Source: an uncultured Alphaproteobacteria bacterium
GTDB taxonomy: Bacteria > Pseudomonadota > Alphaproteobacteria > CAAHEQ01 > UBA3637
NCBI GenBank assembly: GCA_934234055.1
Contig: CAKQGY010000001.1
Coordinates: 14,035 to 78,034, forward strand
DNA length: 64,000 bases
Direction: 5' to 3'
The notes beneath the pieces are model-generated. The model was given only the letters and a program-made list of their open reading frames with translations. It was not told the DNA's origin and ran no database searches. Positions 20,213 through 62,584 of this stretch are shown in pieces (position 1 is the first letter of the stretch; every line of letters starts with the position of its first letter). A program made the translations under genes and the position numbers.

Positions 20213-20261
20213 GTCATTGCGAGGCCGTCAGGCCGTGGCAATCCACCCGGCACATAATTCC
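20213..20261 (+). repeat. REP/MITE-like repeat family 1, copy A (gtcattgcgag-hairpin-gtggcaatcc-acccggcacataattcc), preceded by a Py-rich tract and followed by C7
   Basis: Shares conserved flanks with copies at 24395, 27757, 36996, 43445, 44718, 46774 and 59741. The central hairpin ggccgtcaggcc is variable. Confidence 0.8.
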
Positions 20262-24394: not shown

Positions 24395-24455
24395 CCCCCT
24401 AATTCTTCTTGCCATTGCGAAGGACTGCGCAAGCGAGGACCTGCCTGTGGCCAGG
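24395..24455 (+). repeat. Degenerate copy B of repeat family 1 (ccccctaattcttcttgccattgcgaagg...tgtggccagg)
   Basis: The Py-tract plus a cattgcgaRg core are recognisable. The right flank has diverged. Confidence 0.5.
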
Positions 24456-24610
24456 TGGGGCGCGCAAAGCAATGAACCTTTGCCTTGAACCAGTCCGCTT
24501 CCGCGCACGCCGTTCAAGGCTTAGGTGGAATTGTTTTTTTGCCCGCCCTGTGTCAATCCATAATCAAAGAGTCAACCGTCATTTTACCATCATATAACAC
24601 GGGCAGGGCA

Positions 24611-24716
24611 GGCCGGCACACCTGCGCCGACCCTCACACCATACCACACGGGCCGGCACACCCGCGCCGCCCCTCACACCACACACAACGGGCCGGCACA
24701 CCCGCGCCGGCCCGTT
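24611..24716 (+). repeat. Tandem repeat family 2: 40-bp unit gccggcacaccYgcgccgMccctcacaccaYaccacacgg, 2.7 units
   Basis: Direct tandem units at 24611-24650 and 24651-24690, with a partial third unit ending in the palindrome cgggccggc-N8-gccggcccg. A related copy in the opposite orientation sits at 43317-43380. Confidence 0.8.
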
Positions 24717-27756: not shown

Positions 27757-27807
27757 GTCATTGCGAGGCGACTTGTCGCCGTGGCAATCCATAAGGCACA
27801 TAATTCC
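27757..27807 (+). repeat. Repeat family 1 copy C (gtcattgcgag-gcgacttgtcgcc-gtggcaatcc-ataaggcacataattcc)
   Basis: Sits between convergent genes. The central hairpin gcgac-ttg-tcgcc is variable. Confidence 0.8.
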
Positions 27808-34914: not shown

Positions 34915-37231
34915 TTTTTTTGAACTGACCGATCCCGTCGATTTTTCCGAGGCCGCCCCCACTTCTTCTCCCCAGGACTACCCGTTTATGCAGGCTCTGA
35001 ACCCCGAGCAGCGCCAAGCCGTCATGCAGACCGAGGGTCCCGTTTTGGTTTTATCCGGTGCCGGCACGGGCAAGACTCGCGTGCTCACCACCCGGATTGC
35101 GTATTTGCTGGCGACGGGCAGGGCGACTCCGTGGCAGATTTTAGCCGTCACTTTCACCAACAAGGCCAGCCGCGAGATGAAAGATCGCCTGGAACAGATG
35201 ATCGGCCCGTCGGCGCGTTCGGTATGGCTGGGCACATTTCACGCTATCGGGGTCAAGATTTTGTCGCGTTATGCGGCTCAGGCCGGCCTTGCCCCCAACT
35301 TTATCGTTCTCAACACCGACGACCAAGAACGCCTGTTAAAGCAGCTGATGGTTGCCGGTGGCGTGGACATCAAGCGTTTTACGCCCGCCACGATGCTGGA
35401 CATTATTCAGCGTTGGAAGGACCGCGGCCTGTCCCCCACGGCGATTACGCCGGCTCAGGACAGTGATTTTTGCGACGGCCGTGCGCGTGGCTTTTATCAG
35501 CTGTATCAGAATCGCCTGCGCGAGTTAAACGCCGTTGATTTCGGTGATTTGCTGCTGCTGCCGCTGGAATTGTTCAAGGCCCACCCCGACATTTTAGCGG
35601 TTTATCAGGCCAAGTTCCGCTATCTTCTGGTGGACGAGTATCAGGACACCAATGTTGCCCAGTATTTACTGCTGCGTTTATTGGCGCAAAAGTCGCGTAA
35701 TATCTGCTGTGTCGGCGATGATGATCAGTCTATTTATTCCTGGCGCGGAGCCGAGGTTGAAAACATTCTCAATTTTCAAAGCGTGTATCCCGACGCCGTT
35801 GTGATTCGACTGGAACGCAACTATCGCTCTACGGCGCATATTTTGGGCGCGGCCTCGGCACTGATTGCGAACAATGCCGGACGTCTTGGCAAGACTCTCA
35901 AAGTTGCCGACAACCGCGACGGTGCGGGCGATCGCGTGCACATCACGGGCTACTGGAACGGCACCCAAGAGGCCGCCGGCATTATATCGCATGTAGAGCA
36001 TGCTCAATCTCTCGGCACGCCGCTGTCCCATATGGCGATATTGGTGCGCACATCGGCTCAAACCCGTCCCTTTGAAGACGAGTTGATTCGGGCCGGTATT
36101 CCTTATAAGATTATCGGCGGGTTCAAGTTTTACGAGCGCGAAGAAATCCGCGATGCCGTGGCATATTTGCGCCTGGTCTTAAATCCCGGCGATGATCTGG
36201 CGTTTCAGCGCATCGTCAACAAGCCCCGCCGCGGTATCGGCGACAGCGCGCTGACGGCCATTTCCGAGGCTGCCCGCGACCATCGGATCAGCCTCTTTGA
36301 CGCGATTGCGTGGGCCACATTGCGCCCGTCTGTCCGGCGCACGCTGGACGGCTTTACAACACTGATCACCACCGCCCGCGGCAAACAGGATTTGCTGGAC
36401 CCGGCCGCCCTTGCCAAACAAGTGCTTGAAGACTCGGGCTACATCAATATGTGGCGTATGGACAAATCGCCCGAGGCCGAGGGCCGTTTAGAGAACTTGG
36501 ACGAATTGTATAATGTGTTGGGTGATTTCGAAACGATCAATGATTTTATTGAATATGCCGCCTTGCTCACCGACGCGGACGATAATGCGACCGACGATCA
36601 ACTGGTTGTAATGACACTTCACGCGTCCAAAGGGCTTGAATTTGACTATGTTTTCCTGGCCGGCTGGGAGGAGGGGCTTTTCCCGCACCAACGTGCGTTG
36701 GACGAGACCGGCCAGCAGGGTCTGGAAGAAGAACGTCGTTTGGCGTATGTAGGCCTGACCCGTGCGCGTCAAAAAGCGTTTATTTCGTTTGCCGCGAACC
36801 GCAAGATCTACGGCCAATGGGAGAATACGGTGGCCAGTCGTTTTATTGACGAACTTCCCCCGGGGGATATTCAGAACGATACCCAAGTCCGTATGGGCTC
36901 CACTTCCGGTGATTTTTCCGCTCCCTATCCCCGCGCCGCCTGTGCGTCCTCTTCTGATTCCTTTTCCCGCTCTTTTAATTCTTCTCCTCTCCCCCGTCAT
37001 TGCGAGGGACAGATCAATCTGTCCTGTGGCAATCCATTAAACCAAGAGTCCTTATACTCTTACCAAGGACGAGCCACCCCCCGCCGGAAATCTGCCCGTA
37101 TCGGTAAAAGGGTCTATCACGACACATTCGGTTTCGGAACAGTGATTCGCGAGGAGGGCGACCGCCTGGAAGTCCGTTTTGACGACTATGGCCTCAAAAA
37201 AGTCCTCTCTCGCTTCCTCTCCCCCGCTTAA
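34907..37231 (+). CDS. uvrD: UvrD/PcrA-family ATP-dependent DNA helicase, with a repeat element inserted in-frame in the C-terminal linker
   Basis: Carries the helicase motifs (GAGTGKTRVL Walker A, DEYQDTN, VGDDDQSIYSWRGA, ...) and a C-terminal Tudor-like domain (GKRVYHDTFGFGTVIREEGDRLEVRF). Residues encoded by 36945-37060 are repeat family 1 copy D. Confidence 0.85.
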   Translation: MPDFFELTDPVDFSEAAPTSSPQDYPFMQALNPEQRQAVMQTEGPVLVLSGAGTGKTRVLTTRIAYLLATGRATPWQILAVTFTNKASREMKDRLEQMIGPSARSVWLGTFHAIGVKILSRYAAQAGLAPNFIVLNTDDQERLLKQLMVAGGVDIKRFTPATMLDIIQRWKDRGLSPTAITPAQDSDFCDGRARGFYQLYQNRLRELNAVDFGDLLLLPLELFKAHPDILAVYQAKFRYLLVDEYQDTNVAQYLLLRLLAQKSRNICCVGDDDQSIYSWRGAEVENILNFQSVYPDAVVIRLERNYRSTAHILGAASALIANNAGRLGKTLKVADNRDGAGDRVHITGYWNGTQEAAGIISHVEHAQSLGTPLSHMAILVRTSAQTRPFEDELIRAGIPYKIIGGFKFYEREEIRDAVAYLRLVLNPGDDLAFQRIVNKPRRGIGDSALTAISEAARDHRISLFDAIAWATLRPSVRRTLDGFTTLITTARGKQDLLDPAALAKQVLEDSGYINMWRMDKSPEAEGRLENLDELYNVLGDFETINDFIEYAALLTDADDNATDDQLVVMTLHASKGLEFDYVFLAGWEEGLFPHQRALDETGQQGLEEERRLAYVGLTRARQKAFISFAANRKIYGQWENTVASRFIDELPPGDIQNDTQVRMGSTSGDFSAPYPRAACASSSDSFSRSFNSSPLPRHCEGQINLSCGNPLNQESLYSYQGRATPRRKSARIGKRVYHDTFGFGTVIREEGDRLEVRFDDYGLKKVLSRFLSPA
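36996..37035 (+). repeat. Repeat family 1 copy D, inside the uvrD ORF (gtcattgcgag-ggacagatcaatctgtcc-tgtggcaatcc)
   Basis: Preceded by the usual Py-tract (36945-36993, encoding a Ser-rich linker). The whole insert is read in-frame with no stop. Confidence 0.8.
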
Positions 37232-37242
37232 AAATTATTTTC

Positions 37243-37740
37243 TCAAATCATAGACTCAAACACAACCGTGCCAGCATTGTTGTCGTTGCAGTTTGTCTTA
37301 TGGGGTTTATCGCTATTTTCCGGCCGCACGCTCACATTCTGCCATTGATAGGCTTTCAACTGTTCACACGCGGCTTTCGGCACACTGTCCAAAGTAATCA
37401 CGAAATAATCTCCCGTCTCCGGCGTAACGGTCATTTTTCCCCACGGCGTATCGGCCTCAACGCCCTTGTCTTTTACCTGACACCCATAGGCATCACAGAC
37501 ATCATTATTGACAATGCGCAGCCCAAAATCATTAGTTGTCGGATAGGCCCGGCTCCACGAAAAGATATCCGAGATTCCCCGCGCTGTTTCTTCTACTTGC
37601 GAATAGACCTGCGACACGTTATAGGCCTGCATGCCAAAGTTCATTGCCGATATTCCCCCGACGGTCAGCACGCCGATCACGGCCAGCACCCCCAGCATTT
37701 CCACCATAGATCGTCCGGTTTCATTCGTATTCATCATCAT
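37243..37740 (-). CDS. Type IV pilin-like / pseudopilin protein (prepilin-type N-terminal cleavage/methylation domain)
   Basis: MMMNTNETG|RSMVEMLGVLAVIGVLTVGG has a short leader, a Gly and then a Glu at +5 followed by a hydrophobic helix. The N-terminal 35 aa are near-identical to the large adhesin at 44899..46539, and its downstream domain is distantly related to that protein too. Confidence 0.7.
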   Translation of the reverse strand: MMMNTNETGRSMVEMLGVLAVIGVLTVGGISAMNFGMQAYNVSQVYSQVEETARGISDIFSWSRAYPTTNDFGLRIVNNDVCDAYGCQVKDKGVEADTPWGKMTVTPETGDYFVITLDSVPKAACEQLKAYQWQNVSVRPENSDKPHKTNCNDNNAGTVVFESMI

Positions 37741-43444: not shown

Positions 43445-43481
43445 GGATTGCCGCGCGTCCGGAATGGACGCTCGCAATGAC
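43445..43481 (+). repeat. Repeat family 1 copy E (ggattgccgc-gcgtccggaatggacgc-tcgcaatgac), left direct repeat of the islet
   Basis: It matches copy F (46774-46810) at 33 of 37 positions, including the otherwise variable hairpin, and lies in the same orientation. Confidence 0.8.
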
Positions 43482-43582
43482 AGGGGATAGGGGATAACGG
43501 CGGAGTGGGGAAAGGTATTAAATGGAGTGGGTAAAAAAGAGAGACCTAAAAAGAAGAAGACGAAAGCGGGTGAAAAAAACTG

Positions 43583-43610
43583 TTTACAAAACGGAAAATT
43601 ATGCTATAAT
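43583..43610 (+). promoter_or_regulatory. Sigma-70 promoter TTTACA-N16-TATAAT for the small-protein pair
   Basis: Near-consensus hexamers. A GGAGG SD lies 8 nt before the ATG at 43658. Confidence 0.5.
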
Positions 43611-43657
43611 ATAACTATGGAGCCAATGGAGGCTCGATTATAACCGGAGGAAAAACG

Positions 43658-44044
43658 ATGGATTTGGTAAAACAATACTTTAAAGATGAACGCAAAGAAT
43701 TAAAAGATATGTCGCCGGAAGATAAGGCTGAATTGGCCGAAGAATTGCGCGCAACCACGACGGAAGTGAAAGCAATTGAACAGGCTGCCCCCTTTATGGC
43801 GGATAAAAATGAAAGCGACGGTTTTCGCATGGCGGTGGGGTTGGCAATGCATAACCCGAAAATCGCCAAAGCCATGAAAGCAATGAAACTGAAATTGTCA
43901 TCTAAACAAATTCCGGAACCTTTTGATGTGGAAGAAGAAGGTATCGGTCCGTGGATTCAGGCTGTCGTGAAATATGTGGAAACAGAACAAGCCTCGCGCA
44001 CTGCTGCAACCAAGAAATTGGCGGCCTCGCGGCGGGGGCGCTAG
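43658..44044 (+). CDS. Hypothetical helical protein, paralog 1 (128 aa, C-terminal ...KKLAASRRGR)
   Basis: Strong promoter and SD. Shares an FRxAVGxxxxNPKxAKxxKxxxLKLSSKxxPxP core and a C-terminal A-SRRGR motif with the next ORF. Confidence 0.55.
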   Translation: MDLVKQYFKDERKELKDMSPEDKAELAEELRATTTEVKAIEQAAPFMADKNESDGFRMAVGLAMHNPKIAKAMKAMKLKLSSKQIPEPFDVEEEGIGPWIQAVVKYVETEQASRTAATKKLAASRRGR

Positions 44045-44068
44045 GATATCCGAAAGGAGGAAAACCCG

Positions 44069-44596
44069 ATGAATTTGGACGAATTGGCCTATCCCGAGAA
44101 TATAGAAACCTATCGCACGACGGTGCCCGATAATGAAGAGCGCGTGTCGTCGGTGGACGAGATTGCTCTGGAAAAAGATATTGAAGCAGTGAAAAAAAGT
44201 GCACGGCTGCGGCAGGCGGATTTGGACGGGACAAAGTTGTCAAAGGCCGGCGCGGATAATATGCGGCAGACTTTGCCACAACTGGCGGCGCCGTATATTG
44301 AAGATCCGAAAAAGGAAACGATTCGCTTTCGAACCGCGGTCGGAATGCTGATCCGGAATAACCCGAAAATGGCGAAAATCCTGAAAGAAACGGGATTGAA
44401 ACTGTCGTCAAAGCTGGTGCCGAGCCCGTATGAAGCGAACTATGCACGATCGGAAATTGAGCATATCGGTATGTGGTGCGGCGCTGTGCGGGAGTTCTTG
44501 GAACGGCAGGAGGCTGCACGGCAGGCGAAAACACCGGCCAAAGCCGAAGAGGCTGCGCGGCTGAAACGCTTGGCACAGAGCCGGCGGGGACGCTAG
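44069..44596 (+). CDS. Hypothetical helical protein, paralog 2 (175 aa, C-terminal ...KRLAQSRRGR)
   Basis: Tandem paralog of 43658..44044 with a GGAGG SD. I recognise no family. Confidence 0.55.
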   Translation: MNLDELAYPENIETYRTTVPDNEERVSSVDEIALEKDIEAVKKSARLRQADLDGTKLSKAGADNMRQTLPQLAAPYIEDPKKETIRFRTAVGMLIRNNPKMAKILKETGLKLSSKLVPSPYEANYARSEIEHIGMWCGAVREFLERQEAARQAKTPAKAEEAARLKRLAQSRRGR

Positions 44597-44717
44597 GCCG
44601 GAGTGCCAGGGGAAGGCTGTCTGGGCTGTCGGGACGCCGAGGTATTCGGGCACTGGTGTGCGACGGTAAGGCTTGGCTGTATGGTGGCACGGGTCGGTAG
44701 GGTACCGGCGATGACAA

Positions 44718-44840
44718 GAAGCATTATCTGATTATGGATTGCCACAGGGCGGACTTTTCCAAGTCCGCCCTTCACAATGATATTGCATTCGTGTTTGATG
44801 GATTCTTCGCGGGGACAAGCCCCGCTCAGAATGACGAAAG
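44718..44840 (+). repeat. Repeat family 1 copy G, a two-module form (...attatggattgccac-hairpin-tcacaatga + tattgcattcgtgtttgatggattcttcg-cggggacaagccccg-ctcagaatgac)
   Basis: Module 2 is shared with copies F and H. It is intergenic between the paralog pair and the adhesin gene. Confidence 0.75.
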
Positions 44841-44898
44841 GTGAGACGGGCCTTTTCAGACCGTTCTGCGGTAATCCGGCAAATGCATAATTTATATA

Positions 44899-46539
44899 TT
44901 ACTTATGACATAAGAAAGGAGAGCCAATCGGACTTAAATCAATTTCTATTTCAGAGGCCACATTGTGCGCTTTCCCATCTTTCATTACAATTTGATATTT
45001 CTTTCCGGCGGTAAAAGAATAATCCTGTGGCCAGAACATATCTTTCCCAGATAGTGTGGCCGACCCTCTATTACCATAGGTATGCCAGGCCAAAGTGACA
45101 TTATTAAAAGACTCGTCCGACAAATAGATAAGATATCCCTCTTGAGTACTGGTGCAACTCTTTTTACTGGAATGAGTGCTGCCCATTGGAGACGTTGGTG
45201 TTGTTATACTGGTATAAGCTACAAAAGTTCGATTACATTTATTGCCCCATACAGAAGTATATTTAAGACCATCTTTTAAGCCGAAAAATTGACAAGGTGT
45301 TTTACAAACATTCTTAGTTGTATCACATTTAAACTTGTTATCTGCTCGTCCGGCACAATCCGTATCATTCACGCACTCCACGCAGGCTGTATTATCAGCG
45401 TTTGGTACGCCCGTCGGACAGTTGCATTCGCAGGTATCGGCATTTTGTGTCATACCGGCAGCCGCGCACGCCGGGCATTTGCAGGTATTGTTTGCGACAT
45501 CACAGACGGTCTTGGGCTCGGTGCAGGTCAAGGGCTCGTAAGTTGTATAGGCCGGACATGCTTCCGTCGCCGCGTGCTCCGTGGTCGTATAGCAGGTGTT
45601 CTGCGGCACCGACCCCGACTCCGGACAAGCACAAGTATTATCTGCCATATTGCATATTTTGCCGCCGGTGCAGTCTGTATCGGCCAGGCATTCCACACAC
45701 GCGTTGTCATCGGCGTTTGGCACCCCCGTCGGGCAAGTGCACGCACAGGTGTTCGGATTCTGCACCTTGTCCGGGTTCGTGCACCCCGTGGTGCAGACGC
45801 AGCTCAAATCGTCGTCGCACCGGTGCAGTCCGTCATTGGTGCAGTCCGCAATTGTGTTCTGGTGAGGCCCATACCTGTCAATTGAAGCCTGATCAAAATA
45901 GCACTGCCGCGTATTCGCCGTTGTGCAGCAAGTTAAATTGTTGGCGGCTGTTTTCTTACATTCTTTATTAGATAGGTATTGGCCTTCTTCAAACGCCAAA
46001 GTGTCCGTGTCCGTTACGCGGCAGCAGGTTTTGCCCCAACACGGATCATACGCCTCCGCGTCAGTGCGCTCGTTCAAGTCCCCCGCGAACACAAAGGTCA
46101 TCTTACTGTTCCCCTCGGGGCAGGGAATAGCCCGTTCATTCACAAAAATCCCCGCCGGCCAAGTCCAGTTCCGATCCAAGATATCCTGACACACCGCCTG
46201 AGGCACCTCTTTCACATCAATAGAGAACAAGTTTTTCTCGTTATTCAAGCCACCATCAAACCATTCGGTCTCATATTCCAGGATTGTGCTTGGGAACTCG
46301 GACAAGTTGATTCCCTCCATACCTTGCAGGTATTGCCCGCTACCGACGGTGGCGCGTTGTTTAACGCTTTCTATAATCTCGTTGGCGCGATACCGTGTCA
46401 TCGCAAAGTTATACCCCGCAACACCCCCGATGCTCAGCACTCCCATAATCGCCAACACCCCCAGCATCTCTACCATACTGCGACCAGATTCGGAATTGTC
46501 CTTTGCACCCCACGCCCCGGAGCGCCGGCTGAAGTTCAT
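44899..46539 (-). CDS. Large pilin-like Cys-rich adhesin candidate: prepilin-type N-terminus, tandem Cys-rich repeats and a C-terminal globular domain (546 aa from ATG 46539)
   Basis: The N-terminus ...SESG|RSMVEMLGVLAIMGVLSIGG is near-identical to the pilin-like ORF at 37243. Two Cys-rich modules are present (CxCPTGVPNADxxACVECxxDTDCxG). The tracked ORF reaches the TTG at 46653 through a C13 run encoding PPPP. An SD-preceded ATG at 46634 is currently out of frame. Confidence 0.65.
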   Translation of the reverse strand: MNFSRRSGAWGAKDNSESGRSMVEMLGVLAIMGVLSIGGVAGYNFAMTRYRANEIIESVKQRATVGSGQYLQGMEGINLSEFPSTILEYETEWFDGGLNNEKNLFSIDVKEVPQAVCQDILDRNWTWPAGIFVNERAIPCPEGNSKMTFVFAGDLNERTDAEAYDPCWGKTCCRVTDTDTLAFEEGQYLSNKECKKTAANNLTCCTTANTRQCYFDQASIDRYGPHQNTIADCTNDGLHRCDDDLSCVCTTGCTNPDKVQNPNTCACTCPTGVPNADDNACVECLADTDCTGGKICNMADNTCACPESGSVPQNTCYTTTEHAATEACPAYTTYEPLTCTEPKTVCDVANNTCKCPACAAAGMTQNADTCECNCPTGVPNADNTACVECVNDTDCAGRADNKFKCDTTKNVCKTPCQFFGLKDGLKYTSVWGNKCNRTFVAYTSITTPTSPMGSTHSSKKSCTSTQEGYLIYLSDESFNNVTLAWHTYGNRGSATLSGKDMFWPQDYSFTAGKKYQIVMKDGKAHNVASEIEIDLSPIGSPFLCHK

Positions 46540-46560
46540 ACGAAAATACTTTAATAACGC

Positions 46561-46566
46561 ATTATA
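46561..46566 (-). promoter_or_regulatory. Candidate -10 hexamer TATAAT upstream of ATG 46539
   Basis: A perfect TATAAT lies 22 nt upstream of the MNFSRR start. The -35 is poor (ATAACT-like), and the poly-C tract lies just upstream. Confidence 0.35.
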
Positions 46567-46599
46567 ACCACTTGAAAAACAAGAGTTATTCACACATAT

Positions 46600-46612
46600 G
46601 GGGGGGGGGGGG
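46600..46612 (+). repeat. Homopolymeric G13 (C13 on the coding strand) in the 5' region of the pilin-like adhesin gene
   Basis: Thirteen consecutive G. It separates an SD-preceded ATG (46634, frame +1) from the main ORF. Confidence 0.9.
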
Positions 46613-46706
46613 TATTGCCGGATAAAATATACATTTTGTGTCTCCTTTCTCAATCTGGAAAAATGTAATATATCTTTTTATAGCAGGAATTTTTGCCCCT
46701 GTCAAT

Positions 46707-46737
46707 AAAAAAAAGTCCGCATGACGCGGACAATTTT
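46707..46737 (-). terminator. Rho-independent terminator for the obg-rsfS transcript (hairpin gtccgc-atga-cgcggac with T8 on the minus strand)
   Basis: A8 precedes and aatttt follows on the plus strand, which gives a strong T8 on the minus strand. Confidence 0.65.
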
Positions 46738-46759
46738 GGCGATCCCGACAGGATTCGAA
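46737..46759 (-). other. tRNA 3'-end fragment (T-loop TTCGAAT, T-stem 3' half, acceptor 3' half, discriminator and CCA), with no 5' half
   Basis: The minus strand reads ttcgaat-cctgt-cgggatc-g-cca, which parses exactly as the 3' 23 nt of a tRNA. No complementary acceptor 5' strand lies within 100 nt, so it is not a gene. Confidence 0.55.
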
Positions 46760-46773
46760 CTTGCGTGTTTTGC

Positions 46774-46845
46774 GGATTGCCACGCGTCCAAAATGGACAC
46801 TCGCAATGACAAGCAGAATTATGTGCCTAATGGATTCTTCGGGAA
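46774..46845 (+). repeat. Repeat family 1 copy F (ggattgccac-gcgtccaaaatggacac-tcgcaatgac plus module 2 gaattatgtgcctaatggattcttcggg), right direct repeat of the islet
   Basis: Near-identical to copy E. It is followed by a Pu-rich tract that includes G6. Confidence 0.8.
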
Positions 46846-48738: not shown

Positions 48739-48739
<1 letters not shown>

Positions 48740-50190
48740 TATTGCACGGCTTTCCCGTTGAGAGTCAGTTTGCCATCTTGAAACTGAATTTTGAGCGTGT
48801 CAACCGTCGCACCGTCCGGATCCGTCGTGCGCGCGCCCGCCGTGAGGTAAGGCCGAATGATGTCCAGCATACCGCCCTGAGGCGCACAGGCCATTTCAAT
48901 CATCATTTGAGAGGCTTGCTTATCCTGCTCGTCTGTGGGGTTTGTGAAGTCCTTTTTCGCCTGAGCACAACGGGCTTCATCAACCGTCGGAACCGGCGAA
49001 ATGGTGTCCAAATTGCGAATGGTCAGCGTCGCATCAACCACCGGTTGCGGATTACCGCGCACGTCAAACTTGGCCCGCGCCGTGCCCGTCAGCATCAGAC
49101 CTGCGCCGGCGTTTTGAACCTGCAACTCGTGCAAGGTAATCGTGCCGGATTGCAGCATATGCTGAATGGCGGCGTGTTGCCGGGCATCGTCGGACTTGTC
49201 ATCGGTGAGGGTGAGCAGATCCTGTTTATTGAGCCCCGTAATGTCCAAACGCAGCATAATCTCGGTCGGCATCAGGTTGGCCGGCACCGGCATCGCGGTT
49301 TGCAATTGGGTGAGTTTGGTCTCAAAATGATAGGTGTCATCTTGGAAGCGAGTTTTGCCCGACAGCGCGCCCGTCGCCATGGGCAGCGAGCTGTTCGTGC
49401 CGGCGGTGGGGAAAATCTGAATCGTCGGAATTTCAAAGGTGCCCTCAAATTTATCGGCCAGCAATTGACGCGTTAAATCCACGCCGACAACCGGTGCGTT
49501 CGTCAGCAGCGAATACGCCGTCAGCACCGGGATTTTAAGGCTGCCGTTTTGGGTGGTCAGGGTCATATCACGCATATCCAGCGCCGCTGACATATCCATT
49601 TTGTCCGCCGCCAAAGGGCGCGCCAAAATGTCCGAAGTCAATTGCGTCAGTGCCAAGGTGCCGTCGGCGGTGCTCATTTTCGCATCGGTGGCACGCGTGG
49701 CGCGGTTGGCAATCAATTGATAGGCCGGAACAACGATTAAATCGTCCTGAACCGTGGCGGCCGTCAATTTGATGTCGTCGTCAACCAGAGCCAGTAAGTC
49801 TTGAAGATAATCCAGAGAGGCCAGAGACAGCTTATACTGTGCCTGATCCCCGAAAGCACCGGCACGGGTCAGTTTGACCGAACGGGCAGAGAGCGACTTG
49901 ACTTTGCCGTCGTCCTCGTCCGATACGGCGCCCAACGTAATATCAAAATCATCACCGTTTGGGGTGACGGTAATTTCGCCGGGCCAGGCAATCACGGATT
50001 CAAGGGTTTGTTTGACCTGCTCGATTGTGGGGATAACCACTGCGGAAGCGGTCGTTGCCGGCGCGGGAGCGGGGGCCGTGGGGGCTGTGGCAACAGCAGG
50101 GGCCGGGGTCGGAGCCTCGGCCGCCAGCAGAGGAAATGACGCACAGGTTAAACCCGCCGCAATACAGCCCAGTAAAAGTGTTTTTTTCAT
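48739..50190 (-). CDS. Secreted hypothetical protein with an Ala/Pro-rich linker (possibly DUF2125-like)
   Basis: ATG 50190 (MKKTLLLGCIAAGLTCASFPLLAA signal) with an AAAGGAGA SD. It has a PAPAVATAPTAPAPAPATTA linker. The family assignment is uncertain. Confidence 0.45.
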
Positions 50191-50297
50191 CGTAAGTGTC
50201 TCCTTTCTGTTAAAAATAATGCCTATTATAAAGCGGGTTTGGGGGTAAATCAAGGATTTTCTTGCAATTTTGTAAAAAATATGCTATAACGAAAGCC

Positions 50298-59740: not shown

Positions 59741-59812
59741 GTGGATTGCCGCGGGACAGACCTGTCTGTCCCGCGCAATGACAGAAGCATTCGTGTTTAA
59801 TGGATTCTTCGG
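59741..59812 (+). repeat. Repeat family 1 copy H (ggattgccgc-gggacagacctgtctgtcccgc-gcaatgac + module 2 agcattcgtgtttaatggattcttcgg), followed by G9 at 59852-59860
   Basis: Same modular structure as copies F and G. The G9 tract lies 45 nt upstream of the adhE -35. Confidence 0.8.
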
Positions 59813-59906
59813 TCGCTCCCAATTCAACCTAAGCCTGGAACGGCGTGTGCAGGGGGGGGGCGAAAAAATGGGAGTGAAAAAAGTCAAAAAAGGATGAAGA
59901 AAATGC

Positions 59907-59935
59907 TTGACTTTTGAGGGGTGTTTTGCTATATT
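59907..59935 (+). promoter_or_regulatory. Sigma-70 promoter TTGACT-N17-TATATT for adhE
   Basis: Its hexamers and spacing are identical to those of the ffh promoter. Confidence 0.5.
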
Positions 59936-59951
59936 GTGCCACAAATCACAA
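59934..59951 (+). promoter_or_regulatory. Candidate Rex operator TTGTGCCACAAATCACAA overlapping the adhE -10/+1
   Basis: Matches the 18-bp Rex consensus TTGTGAA-N4-TTCACAA in both half-sites (TTGTG...CACAA). The rex gene lies immediately downstream of adhE. Confidence 0.55.
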
Positions 59952-59986
59952 TTCAAAACTCAAAAAATAACAGAAAGGAACGAAAA

Positions 59987-62584
59987 ATGAGTGAAGTTAA
60001 ATCTTTGGAAGATTTAGAAAAACTGATTGACCGGGTCCATGTCGCACAGAATCGCTTTGCGACATTCTCGGAAGAAAAAGTTGACGCGATTTTTAAAGCG
60101 GCGGCAACGGCTGCCGATAAAATGCGGATTGACTTGGCCGAAATGGCCGTCGCCGAAACCGGTATGGGCGTGATTGAAGATAAAATTATCAAAAATCACT
60201 TCGCTTCCGAATACATCTATAACAAGCACAAAAACAAAAAAACCTGCGGAATTATCAGTCGTGATAAAATTAACGGCACAAAAATCGTGGCCTCGCCTTT
60301 GGGCGTGATCGCGGGCGTTGTGCCGACAACGAATCCGACCTCTACGGCGATTTTTAAATCATTAATCTGTCTGAAAACCCGCAACGGCATTATCTTTTCA
60401 CCGCACCCGCGCGCCAAAAAATCCACGATCGCTGCGGCGAAAGTGGTGCTGGATGCGGCCGTGAAAGCCGGCGCGCCGAAAGATATTATTGCTTGGGTTG
60501 ATGAACCGTCTTTGGAACTGACACAAGCGTTGATGACTCACCCGAAAATCCAAGCGATTTTGGCAACCGGTGGCCCGGGTATGGTTAAGGCGGCCTATTC
60601 ATCAGGCAAGCCCGCGTTGGGCGTGGGGTCGGGTAATACGCCGGCCGTGATTGATGAAACAGCGGATATTATTCGCGCGGTGTCCTCAATCCTGATGTCC
60701 AAGACCTTTGATAACGGTATGATTTGTGCCTCGGAACAATCGGTAATTGTGGTCAAAGATGTTTATGAAGATGTGAAAAAAGAGTTCGTCTATCGCGGGG
60801 CGTATCTGATGAACAAAGCCGAAATGGATAAGTTGGGCAAAATTATCCTGACCGACAAAGGAACCGTGAATGCGGCGATCGTCGGACAACCGGCACACAA
60901 AATCGCGGAATTGGCGGGCTTTCAGGTGCCGGAAAATGCCAAAATCCTGTTGGCGGAACAAACCTCGTATGATGTGAAAAACCCGTTTGCGCACGAAAAA
61001 TTGTCGCCGATCTTGGCGATGTATAAAGCCGATAATTTTGAACAAGCGGCCGAGATGGCACACGCGTTGATCGCACTGGGCGGATTGGGGCATACCTCGG
61101 TCCTGTATACCGATGAACGCAAACAAGAACGGATTGATGCCTATGCAACGATGATGCCGACCGGCCGTATCCTGATCAACAGCCCGGCCTCGCAAGGCGG
61201 AATCGGCGATCTGTATAACTTCCGCTTGGAACCGTCGTTGACCCTGGGTTGCGGCTCGTGGGGCGGAAACTCGGTCAGCGAAAATGTCGGCGTGAAACAT
61301 TTGCTAAACTATAAAACTGTTGCAGAAAGGAGAGAAAATATGTTGTGGTTTAAAGTGCCGCCCAAGATCTATTTCAAACGGGGAGCGACCGAATTGGCTT
61401 TGCGCGAATTTGAAGGTAAAAAACGCGCGTTCATTATTACAGACCGATTCTTGTTTGATTCGGGTGCGGTGCGGACAATCACGGATACCTTGGAAGCCAT
61501 TGATGTGGATTACCAGATCTTCTTTGATGTCAAGCCTGATCCGACTTTGTCCACGGTGGAACAAGCCTTGGCCATGGTGCGGCCGTATGAACCGGATTTG
61601 ATTATTGCCCTGGGTGGCGGATCGCCGATGGATGTGGGCAAGATTATCTGGCTGATGTATGAACACCCGGAAACCAACTTTGAAGACATTTCTATGCGGT
61701 TTATGGATATTCGTAAGCGGATTTGCTCTATTCCGGAATTGGGTCAAAAAGCCAAATTGGTCTGTATCCCGACAACCTCAGGGACGGGCTCGGAAGTGAC
61801 GCCGTTCTCTATTATCACGGACGATGCAACCCATGTTAAGTATGCGTTGGCGGATTACGCTTTGACACCGTCTATGGCGATTATTGATGCGAACTTTGTG
61901 GACGGTATGCCCAAAGGGCTGACCTCGGCCGGTGGGATTGACGCGATGGTGCATGCGCTGGAAGCCTATGTCTCGGTGATGGCAACGAACTATACGAATT
62001 CGTTGGCGTTGGAGGCAATTAAACAAATCTTCCGCTATTTGCCGGCGTCGTATGCCGAAGGATCCGGCAATCCCAAAGCCCGTGAAAAAATGCATAACGC
62101 GGCGACCATCGCCGGTATGGCGTTTGCCAATGCATTCTTGGGGCTGTGCCACTCTATGGCGCACAAGTTGGGCGCAATGTATAACATTCCGCATGGGATT
62201 GCGAATGCCTTGCTGATCTGTCAGGTGATTCGCTATAACGCGACGGATTGCCCGAAGAAACAGGCGATCTTCCCGCAATATCGCGCTCCGGAAGCCAAAA
62301 AACGCTATGGGCAGATTGCGCATGTGCTGTATCTGGCGGATGAAAATGTGTCCGATGACGAAAAAGTGAACCGCTTGATCAAAGCGGTGGCGGACCTGAA
62401 AGAAAAAATCGGTATCCCCAAATCCATCCGGGAATGGGGTGTTGATGAAAAAACCTTTATGGACAACTTGGATAAACTGTCGCGCTTGGCCTTTGACGAC
62501 CAATGCACGGGAGCCAATCCGGTGTATCCGTTGATCAGCGATATCAAACAACTCTATCTGGACGCGTTTGAAGGCAAATACTAG
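59987..62584 (+). CDS. adhE: Bifunctional aldehyde/alcohol dehydrogenase AdhE
   Basis: N-terminal ALDH domain and C-terminal Fe-ADH domain (GGGSPMD, plus iron-binding His residues). 865 aa from ATG 59987, with a GAAAGGAA SD. Confidence 0.9.
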   Translation: MSEVKSLEDLEKLIDRVHVAQNRFATFSEEKVDAIFKAAATAADKMRIDLAEMAVAETGMGVIEDKIIKNHFASEYIYNKHKNKKTCGIISRDKINGTKIVASPLGVIAGVVPTTNPTSTAIFKSLICLKTRNGIIFSPHPRAKKSTIAAAKVVLDAAVKAGAPKDIIAWVDEPSLELTQALMTHPKIQAILATGGPGMVKAAYSSGKPALGVGSGNTPAVIDETADIIRAVSSILMSKTFDNGMICASEQSVIVVKDVYEDVKKEFVYRGAYLMNKAEMDKLGKIILTDKGTVNAAIVGQPAHKIAELAGFQVPENAKILLAEQTSYDVKNPFAHEKLSPILAMYKADNFEQAAEMAHALIALGGLGHTSVLYTDERKQERIDAYATMMPTGRILINSPASQGGIGDLYNFRLEPSLTLGCGSWGGNSVSENVGVKHLLNYKTVAERRENMLWFKVPPKIYFKRGATELALREFEGKKRAFIITDRFLFDSGAVRTITDTLEAIDVDYQIFFDVKPDPTLSTVEQALAMVRPYEPDLIIALGGGSPMDVGKIIWLMYEHPETNFEDISMRFMDIRKRICSIPELGQKAKLVCIPTTSGTGSEVTPFSIITDDATHVKYALADYALTPSMAIIDANFVDGMPKGLTSAGGIDAMVHALEAYVSVMATNYTNSLALEAIKQIFRYLPASYAEGSGNPKAREKMHNAATIAGMAFANAFLGLCHSMAHKLGAMYNIPHGIANALLICQVIRYNATDCPKKQAIFPQYRAPEAKKRYGQIAHVLYLADENVSDDEKVNRLIKAVADLKEKIGIPKSIREWGVDEKTFMDNLDKLSRLAFDDQCTGANPVYPLISDIKQLYLDAFEGKY

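Follow-up and report, generated by a model that had tools for sequence, protein, structure and literature searches.

What kind of protein is encoded by a long, cysteine-laden open reading frame (ORF) in the genome of an uncultured gut alphaproteobacterium, and how might its expression and its diversity be controlled? This question is raised by the minus-strand ORF 44899..46539 in a 64-kb stretch of contig CAKQGY010000001.1, which originates from a metagenome-assembled genome (MAG) of an uncultured member of the Alphaproteobacteria; the whole stretch is referred to as the window, and coordinates are window positions unless a related locus is named. With moderate confidence, the gene product is interpreted as a modular type IVb-like pilin, probably a glycan-binding and switchable adhesin, which would belong to a paralogue family featuring many different heads and would be switched through a homopolymeric C13 tract. 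The gene and the parts of its product, whose coordinates were verified by translation, are as follows:

44899..46539, minus strand: modular pilin-like ORF, 546 aa from the internal ATG at 46539, TAA stop at 44899-44901
46483..46539, minus strand: leader peptide MNFSRRSGAWGAKDNSESG, residues 1-19, ending at the invariant G-1; this leader was also called in the relatives P0002 and P0015
46066..46482, minus strand: pilin module, residues 20-158, consisting of the alpha1 helix (modelled at 21-71) and a beta-sheet domain
45295..46065, minus strand: Cys-rich stalk, residues 159-415, with 36 Cys
45664..45741, minus strand: stalk module copy 1, residues 267-292, CTCPTGVPNADDNACVECLADTDCTG
45349..45426, minus strand: stalk module copy 2, residues 372-397, CNCPTGVPNADNTACVECVNDTDCAG
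44902..45294, minus strand: C-terminal head, residues 416-546, modelled as a beta-sandwich, with Cys 416/435/462/544

A version of the ORF extended from a TTG codon reaches 46653. Several features of this layout had been recorded in a first-pass annotation of the window, and most of them were recovered, namely the prepilin-like leader with the adjoining hydrophobic helix (MNFSRRSGAWGAKDNSESG followed by RSMVEMLGVLAIMGVLSIGGVAGY), the two modules of the type CxCPTGVPNADxxACVECxxDTDCxG (at the residues listed above) and the beta-rich nature of the C-terminal 130 or so residues, for which AlphaFold2 predicted strands at 465-533 with values of the predicted local distance difference test (pLDDT) of 73-94. 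The Cys-rich stretch as such is real, but the count of more than 40 cysteines within approximately 250 aa had to be lowered to 36 for the stalk; a total of 42 was reached for the whole protein, including two in the N-domain (C117 and C140) and four in the last 131 residues.

The N-terminus of the protein resembles that of type IV pilins. Its leader reads ESG directly followed by RSMVEMLGVLAIMGVLSIGGVAGY, placing Gly at position -1 and Glu at +5 ahead of about 20 hydrophobic residues, and G-1, R+1 and E+5 were invariant in all alignments (19 N-domains as well as 39 and 74 full-length relatives). Type IVb pilins possess a longer leader than type IVa pilins and a residue other than Phe at +1; in the window protein, the leader comprises 19 aa from ATG 46539 (51 aa if fused to ATG 46634) and Arg occupies +1. 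An AlphaFold2 model of the full protein, computed from an alignment of 125 real sequences and reaching a mean pLDDT of 75.6, assigned pLDDT values of 88-97 to residues 21-155 and contains both the long alpha1 helix (51 residues, 21-71) and the antiparallel beta-sheet of type IV pilins. Residues 20-158 are confidently modelled as a type IV pilin fold, with the type IVb pilins CofA, TcpA and PilS predicted as the closest relatives. Moreover, C117 and C140, which may form a disulfide, are conserved throughout the family without exception or almost so.

In a six-frame motif scan of the window, the leader was detected in two genes only, the pilin-like gene itself and the following one:

37243..37740, minus strand: small pilin of 165 aa with the same leader and helix, candidate major pilin

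Both products are related (BLASTP: 30% identity over 128 aa, E=3e-15) and have the motif VPxAxCxxL...W in common, as claimed at first pass (VPQAVCQDIL..NW vs VPKAACEQL..QW). The small pilin matched the Pfam family PilS, representing the R64 type IVb pilin, below the cut-off (E=0.0032). An identical small-pilin sequence is present on three contigs, and none of its homologues is named.

Between pilin module and head, the AlphaFold2 model of the stalk consists of short beta-hairpins with pLDDT values of 50-89. A comparison of the stalk with PDB sequences returned nothing at E<=10 and Pfam gave no stalk match; the sole curated match, obtained with NCBIfam, was TIGR04201, a Cys-rich repeat of Myxococcus, at E=3.7e-4 and below the cut-off. 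The earlier proposal of disulfide knots of the EGF, furin or GCC2_GCC3 type was not sustained, as no such Pfam match appeared at E<=1 for the 546-aa protein; EGF modules do occur in other family members, unlike in the stalk of the window protein.

The head behaves as a separate module. Comparison with PDB sequences gave chance-level matches only (E~1), and a single-sequence AlphaFold2 prediction of the head alone reached a pLDDT of 37. Weak fold matches were obtained to PA14 domains, collagen-binding (PPC) domains and GOLD domains, among which PA14 was the commonest Foldseek match both in the PDB and in a viral library; the call of a PA14-like fold is a weak one. PA14 domains are known from domain 1 of anthrax protective antigen, from the adhesin MpIBP and from inserts of glycosidases, and they bind carbohydrates in adhesins and toxins. 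The modelling supports a separate beta-sandwich module whose best fold matches are carbohydrate- or collagen-binding. Accordingly, the binding domain suggested at first pass stood with regard to the module and its weak resemblance to binding folds, whereas the adhesive function is putative.

The head is rare. When only the head was used as query, a word-indexed search for homologues returned no match; exhaustive searching of 1.84 billion representatives by HMMER yielded the orthologue P0001 (92% identity to the window protein over the full length) and four further proteins (P0121-P0124; 33-41% identity). In all of these homologues the domain is C-terminal and its four cysteines are invariant, and two of them carry it after another type of pilin-like N-domain and a Cys-rich stalk. 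Proteins with Big_9/cadherin repeats were also considered as relatives of the head and were set aside as uninformative, their similarity being of low identity, repeat-driven and absent from the fold-search matches. Taken as a whole, the protein displays the composition of a modular pilin, i.e., a pilin module joined to extra folded modules (20-158/159-415/416-546 in the AlphaFold2 layout), with a head that recurs on other proteins.

The window protein is no isolated case. A search of 5.8 billion proteins retrieved 378 relatives, none of which is named by any source; neither for the window protein nor for P0002 did a database record with the exact sequence turn up, and none of the curated hidden Markov models of Pfam and NCBIfam accepted any part of the 546-aa protein above its cut-off. 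The relatives P0002-P0005 show about 87% identity over the first three quarters (~75%) of the protein and diverge thereafter, while most remaining relatives have only the first ~140 residues in common and nearly all are Cys-rich. A scan of genome contigs with a single protein as query detected nothing, whereas an alignment-based scan succeeded and resulted in 541 confirmed family places in species-representative genomes, nearly always MAGs of uncultured Alphaproteobacteria from gut or rumen, in which a single genome harbors five to seven copies or more. Detailed locus work was carried out on 80 loci kept from these 541; 78 of the 80 are titled Alphaproteobacteria MAGs, with up to seven loci per MAG, and they stem from the gut of humans, goats, deer, sheep, buffalo and rabbits.

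Different heads were found elsewhere in the family. The commonest is defined by the motif W..A.N.C.A...L, present in 40 of the 120 listed members and located near the C-terminus in 35, and its PDB matches were almost exclusively C-type lectin domains, although weak (E 0.02-2.5). Furthermore, teneurin-type EGF domains were identified in at least nine of 74 scanned members, and an F5/8 type C (discoidin) domain as well as a pretoxin-HINT domain in one member each. Judged from the aligned sequences, these proteins represent a large unannotated family with a constant pilin module and variable heads. No description of it was found in the papers searched. As a side observation outside the window, the pretoxin-HINT domain lies behind the pilin module of P0090, a hint that in some paralogues the binding head may be replaced by a C-terminal effector that is cleaved off and delivered.

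A pilus apparatus was identified in related genomes harboring members of this family. The large contig L090, carrying family member P0045, features genes for a GspE-type ATPase and a GspF-type platform protein approximately 10 kb upstream, and for the platform protein 942 close homologues were obtained, several of which are named as originating from Alphaproteobacteria MAGs. Loci L091 and L092 contain a cluster encoding TcpQ, a secretin, PAP_PilO, a PilP-like protein, a GspE-like ATPase and a GspF-like platform protein; the secretin matched TIGR02520 ('PilN family type IVB pilus formation outer membrane protein') at E=2.7e-82. In L027, most of such a type IVb cluster was detected by tblastn at a distance of about 3 kb from a 722-aa family member. 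As deduced from these clusters, the lineage is equipped with a type IVb pilus apparatus, which is consistent with the type IVb-like fold modelled for the pilin module.

With regard to the cluster itself (L091 1599-11140, also in L092; L027 2-6872), it also includes a 343-aa protein of unknown type, a TrbC-like gene is located just upstream on the opposite strand, and the GspE-type ATPase is unusually long, namely 821 aa in the L091 cluster and 1019 aa in L090.

The second part of the question concerns expression. The region preceding the internal ATG of the pilin-like gene contains the following elements:

46677..46705, minus strand: promoter-like site TTGACA-17 nt-TATAAA with a T-run before it, read from the sequence
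46642-46647, minus strand: Shine-Dalgarno (SD) motif AAGGAG; ATG 46634 begins 7 nt later
46590..46634, minus strand: short ORF MYILSGNTPPPPYV followed by a stop codon, starting at ATG 46634 and crossing the C-tract
46600..46612, minus strand: C13 homopolymer (G13 on the plus strand), candidate slipped-strand switch

On the coding strand, the order is terminator hairpin, promoter, SD motif, ATG 46634, 21 further bases and C13. The promoter-like site escaped an automated promoter scan because its rule accepts only -10 hexamers with T as the sixth base; similar promoters precede paralogues in L081, L084 and L088. With thirteen cytosines, the frame opened at ATG 46634 stops after 14 codons, and in a frame simulation this start joined the pilin ORF only with C11, C14 or C17. 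The tract is thereby placed between an SD-equipped ATG and the ORF, and its length decides on fusion of the two, as in contingency loci. Among the paralogues, L083 possesses AGGAGG, an ATG and a C12 tract in frame (fused), and L084 features an interrupted tract, CCCCCGCCACA, which is likewise fused and has no internal ATG. Moreover, a dinucleotide repeat differs between two samples, with (CA)15 at L082 257-286 vs (CA)11 at L086 1080-1101 within identical flanks; both repeats directly follow a TTGACA promoter and lie upstream of the paralogues P0003 and P0004. The contig of the independent assembly L089 stops exactly at the C-tract. Based on the arrangement of start codon, tract and ORF, this copy is probably phase-variable through C13.

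A metagenome scan for the C-tract element gave one chance match only, on an unrelated AT-rich contig. In other MAGs, (ATCT)7 and (AC)11 were observed 164 bp and 493 bp upstream of family genes, respectively (L039, L043). The only other long homopolymer of the window is a G9 tract at 59852-59860, which is intergenic and upstream of the adhE-like gene 59921..62584; a hairpin element lies approximately 70 bp before it.

How the family may diversify was deduced from comparisons of the window to related loci and from two further features:

46715..46765, minus strand: 3' end of a tRNA-Arg gene (last ~28 nt, 46737-46765) and terminator hairpin (46715-46731), forming the start of a ~400-bp 5' cassette
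46774..46811, plus strand: hairpin repeat GGATTGCC..GCAATGACA, with a second copy at 43445-43482 and related copies at 44736-44780 and 44800-44834

The window and the orthologous locus L081 are homologous across the downstream neighbours and the gene as far as position 46503, inside the leader; upstream of this point they are wholly different. In L088, the 5' cassette is present with 90% identity over window positions 46765-46370, but it is joined to a different pilin-like gene in another genomic context, where it follows an intact tRNA-Arg(TCT). No intact tRNA gene was found in the 64-kb window, only the tRNA-Arg end. These sequence relationships suggest that the 5' cassette was copied from a tRNA-adjacent locus. 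Furthermore, residues 361-400, the segment around module copy 2, are closer to paralogue P0003 than to orthologue P0001, which marks the gene as a mosaic. Cassette sharing and the mosaic stalk together indicate that promoter-leader cassettes and stalk segments are exchanged as the family evolves.

Copies of the hairpin repeat at 43445-46811 bracket the pilin-like locus. In total, eight copies of this hairpin family were counted in the window vs 0.18 expected (20214-20244, 27758-27790, 36997-37035, 43445-43482, 44736-44780, 44800-44834, 46774-46811 and 59743-59781), and four of the eight cluster around the pilin-like gene. Their ends are conserved, GGATTGCC(A/G)C ... (C)TCGCAATGA, and their middle is variable and self-complementary. 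Whole or half copies were also observed in the leader-coding region of paralogues, just 5' of the N-S-E-S-G-R codons, and the breakpoint between the window and L081 at 46503 coincides with a hairpin half-element. Shufflon-like inversion was considered as an alternative and rejected, the repeats around the gene being direct and not inverted; no sfx-type inverted repeats or recombinase were seen near the gene or among annotated neighbours, no dedicated shufflon search having been made.

Further elements were recorded in the vicinity. A dispersed element of ~110 bp, with ~90% identity between loci, is present in the window (24421-24533), in L081 (9098-9207) and in L082 (5502-5613); the L081 copy is inserted at a site matching window positions 43460-43474, and a 40-bp tandem repeat (24611-24713) lies beside the window copy. 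Two paralogous small ORFs on the plus strand, 43658-44044 and 44069-44596, encode products of 128 and 175 aa that both end in SRRGR and lack a family match; they face the pilin-like gene in convergent orientation, and this adjacency is kept in L081 and L089. A 504-aa secreted or lipoprotein-like product with an Ala/Pro-rich N-terminal region, likewise lacking a family match, is encoded at 48739-50253 on the minus strand.

The architecture had been considered unusual for a minor pilin. With respect to its kind this view could not be kept, since modular pilins are already known and widespread (PMC8179133) and the lectin-like head of CofB has been described as well (PMC6048534); new here are the particular family and its scale. 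PilB and PilC of S. sanguinis, carrying a vWA and a lectin module, respectively, are modular type IV pilins (Raynaud et al. 2021, PMC8179133), and many such proteins escape recognition since their extra modules have no database signature (PMC8179133). As in these pilins, an N-terminal pilin module is combined with a bulky grafted module, the carrier being thought to be located at the tip and to provide the pilus with a binding function (PMC8179133). In contrast to them, the window protein has a 36-Cys stalk between pilin module and head, belongs to a family with several copies and interchangeable heads within single genomes, and carries a leader missed by IPR012902/PF07963, the basis of the survey by Raynaud et al. 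Signature-based surveys of modular pilins therefore miss the whole lineage, because its leader is too divergent for curated models.

Type IVb minor pilins come close as well. CofB of CFA/III from enterotoxigenic Escherichia coli and TcpB of the toxin-coregulated pilus from V. cholerae likewise combine a type IVb-like pilin domain with beta-rich C-terminal extras, lectin-like in CofB (PMC6048534, PMC5207764), and relatives of the window family are accompanied by type IVb machinery including TcpQ and a PilN-type secretin. However, cofB and tcpB are single genes in a pilus operon, whereas the window gene is located among house-keeping genes; CofB and TcpB possess beta-repeat linkers instead of a Cys-rich stalk, and no sequence similarity to them is detectable. 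For the PilV adhesins of IncI thin pili (R64, TP114; PMC9045228), the analogy consists in a PilN-O-P-Q-R type IVb pilus with a minor pilin whose N-terminal portion is constant and whose variable C-terminus determines binding specificity, to which the weak PilS match of the small pilin may be added. PilV, however, stems from one locus rearranged by Rci at sfx, in contrast to the dispersed full-length paralogues of the window family with their simple repeats and apparent cassette exchange. Finally, the window gene resembles the simple-sequence contingency loci of host-adapted bacteria, such as the homopolymer tracts of Neisseria within or ahead of genes for surface proteins (PMC5084427): at its 5' end it has a 13-base homopolymer, in which a one-base change decides whether the well-placed start codon reads into the ORF. 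It differs from them in that its switching is putative, and the lineage concerned is an uncultured gut commensal, for which no description of such loci was found in the papers searched.

Based on these results, the following mode of action is conceivable. The gene product would most likely be a minor, tip-located pilin, which its pilin module would anchor in a type IV pilus; the stalk (~257 aa), rigid and rich in disulfides, would hold the head of ~131 aa away from the filament, and the beta-sandwich of the head, fixed by two further disulfides, would bind a ligand, probably a glycan. Paralogues with a common pilin module and different heads would constitute a repertoire of binding specificities. 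A slipped-strand change in C13 would turn expression on or off, and in the state that was sequenced, the upstream start does not share the frame of the pilin ORF. We infer that the protein is cleaved by a prepilin peptidase, enters a pilus and mediates adhesion.

Several results weigh against this reading. At the leader, Pfam N_methyl (PF07963) scored the 546-aa protein at E=0.15 and 12.1 bits vs a cut-off of 21.2, NCBIfam prepilin-type models gave no match at E<=1, and a profile of the N-domain matched PDB sequences weakly (a fimbrial protein at 0.046, TcpA at 0.11, PilS at 0.51). Arg at +1 is atypical as well; it is not known from this position in characterised pilins and is unusual for either type IVa or type IVb. 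Regarding the apparatus, no pilus or secretion genes are among the annotated genes of the window, which are house-keeping genes (rnpA, yidC, mnmE, mnmG, PBP1, ffh, trmD, obg, rsfS, RNase J, serS, adhE and others); when the first 88 loci were screened for motifs of GspE-type ATPases, secretins and A24 peptidases, only FtsK and PriA came up, and the machinery is absent from most of the 80 related loci. A Peptidase_A24-like motif was found neither in the window nor in ~1.2 Mb of related loci. Moreover, relatives bearing the machinery have a guanine-cytosine (GC) content of 40-43% vs 52% in the window, so that ascribing this machinery to the window organism is an extrapolation. Pilus presentation, as advanced at first pass, is putative: type IVb machinery exists in related genomes with the same family, but the window lacks pilus genes and no prepilin peptidase was seen. 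Leader rejection by the curated prepilin models, the arginine and the missing peptidase and pilus-gene linkage would all be expected if the protein were no pilus subunit but a surface or periplasmic protein anchored in the membrane, its N-terminal helix acting only as a signal-anchor and its Cys-rich ectodomain functioning at the envelope with neither cleavage nor polymerisation; this explanation is considered distinctly improbable. Somewhat more credit, although it is still unlikely, is given to a minor pilin that initiates assembly or docks secretion partners instead of serving as adhesin, its head binding a secreted partner or triggering retraction. CofB binds CofJ and TcpB binds TcpF, and minor pilins of type IVb that possess additional C-terminal domains prime assembly, act in docking or trigger retraction (PMC5207764, PMC6048534, PMC9565799); both the nearest structural relatives of the window protein and the machinery of its relatives are of type IVb, in agreement with such a role. 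A single pilin of this kind per system, however, would not predict five to seven or more paralogues per genome with lectin-like, EGF, discoidin and HINT heads, nor would it predict the simple repeats upstream of them.

The switch was subject to similar doubts. Tract length was C13 in both assemblies spanning the 5' cassette (window and L088), and the internal Met (MNF, MNC or MDF) is kept in several paralogues; together, these findings imply that ATG 46539 may be the real start and the tract a mere feature of the 5' leader. Across 1.15 Mb, seven of 14 simple repeats sit 112-493 bp upstream of pilin-like genes, a number comprising non-independent cases, as some loci represent the same cassette and close relatives were chosen by hand; in the 80 unbiased loci, just two of eight repeats were upstream of a family gene. 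The phase variation suggested by the first-pass annotation thus fits the simple-repeat evidence in the family, whereas switching at the C13 locus itself is something we infer. The out-of-frame start 46634 and the lack of an SD motif before ATG 46539 are also in line with a silent or decaying copy, i.e., an unexpressed reservoir that donates sequence to its paralogues, and the mosaic gene as well as the 5' cassette in common with the different gene of L088 point to recombination among paralogues. Against this, the ORF of 546 codons is intact and recurs with 99.99% identity in the independent assembly L089, the orthologue P0001, preceded by another promoter and leader, is intact as well, and a one-base change would restore the fusion, as in reversible contingency loci; a silent copy is therefore rated as the least probable explanation and very unlikely.

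Returning to the modular adhesive pilin, a wider version was formulated more tentatively, as a possibility that falls short of being probable. It regards the family as a genome-wide repertoire of type IVb tip proteins, whose interchangeable and partly eukaryote-like heads (C-type-lectin-like, EGF, discoidin, PA14-like) would be switched by repeats (poly-C, (CA)n, (ATCT)n), while cassettes and stalk segments would be exchanged between paralogues at the hairpins. If true, this would represent a combinatorial and stochastic adhesin system, analogous to the PilV shufflon and to the contingency adhesins of Neisseria, but differently built and so far undescribed.

The Alphaproteobacteria of this lineage are common in human and animal gut communities and yet uncultured, and their attachment and interactions are almost unexplored. 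Hundreds of unnamed proteins featuring a pilin fold and lectin-like heads, together with type IVb clusters, provide a testable handle on their colonisation. If the repeat tracts switch expression, this could also explain the assembly breaks at these genes, and contingency-locus biology would extend to an anaerobic lineage of gut commensals.

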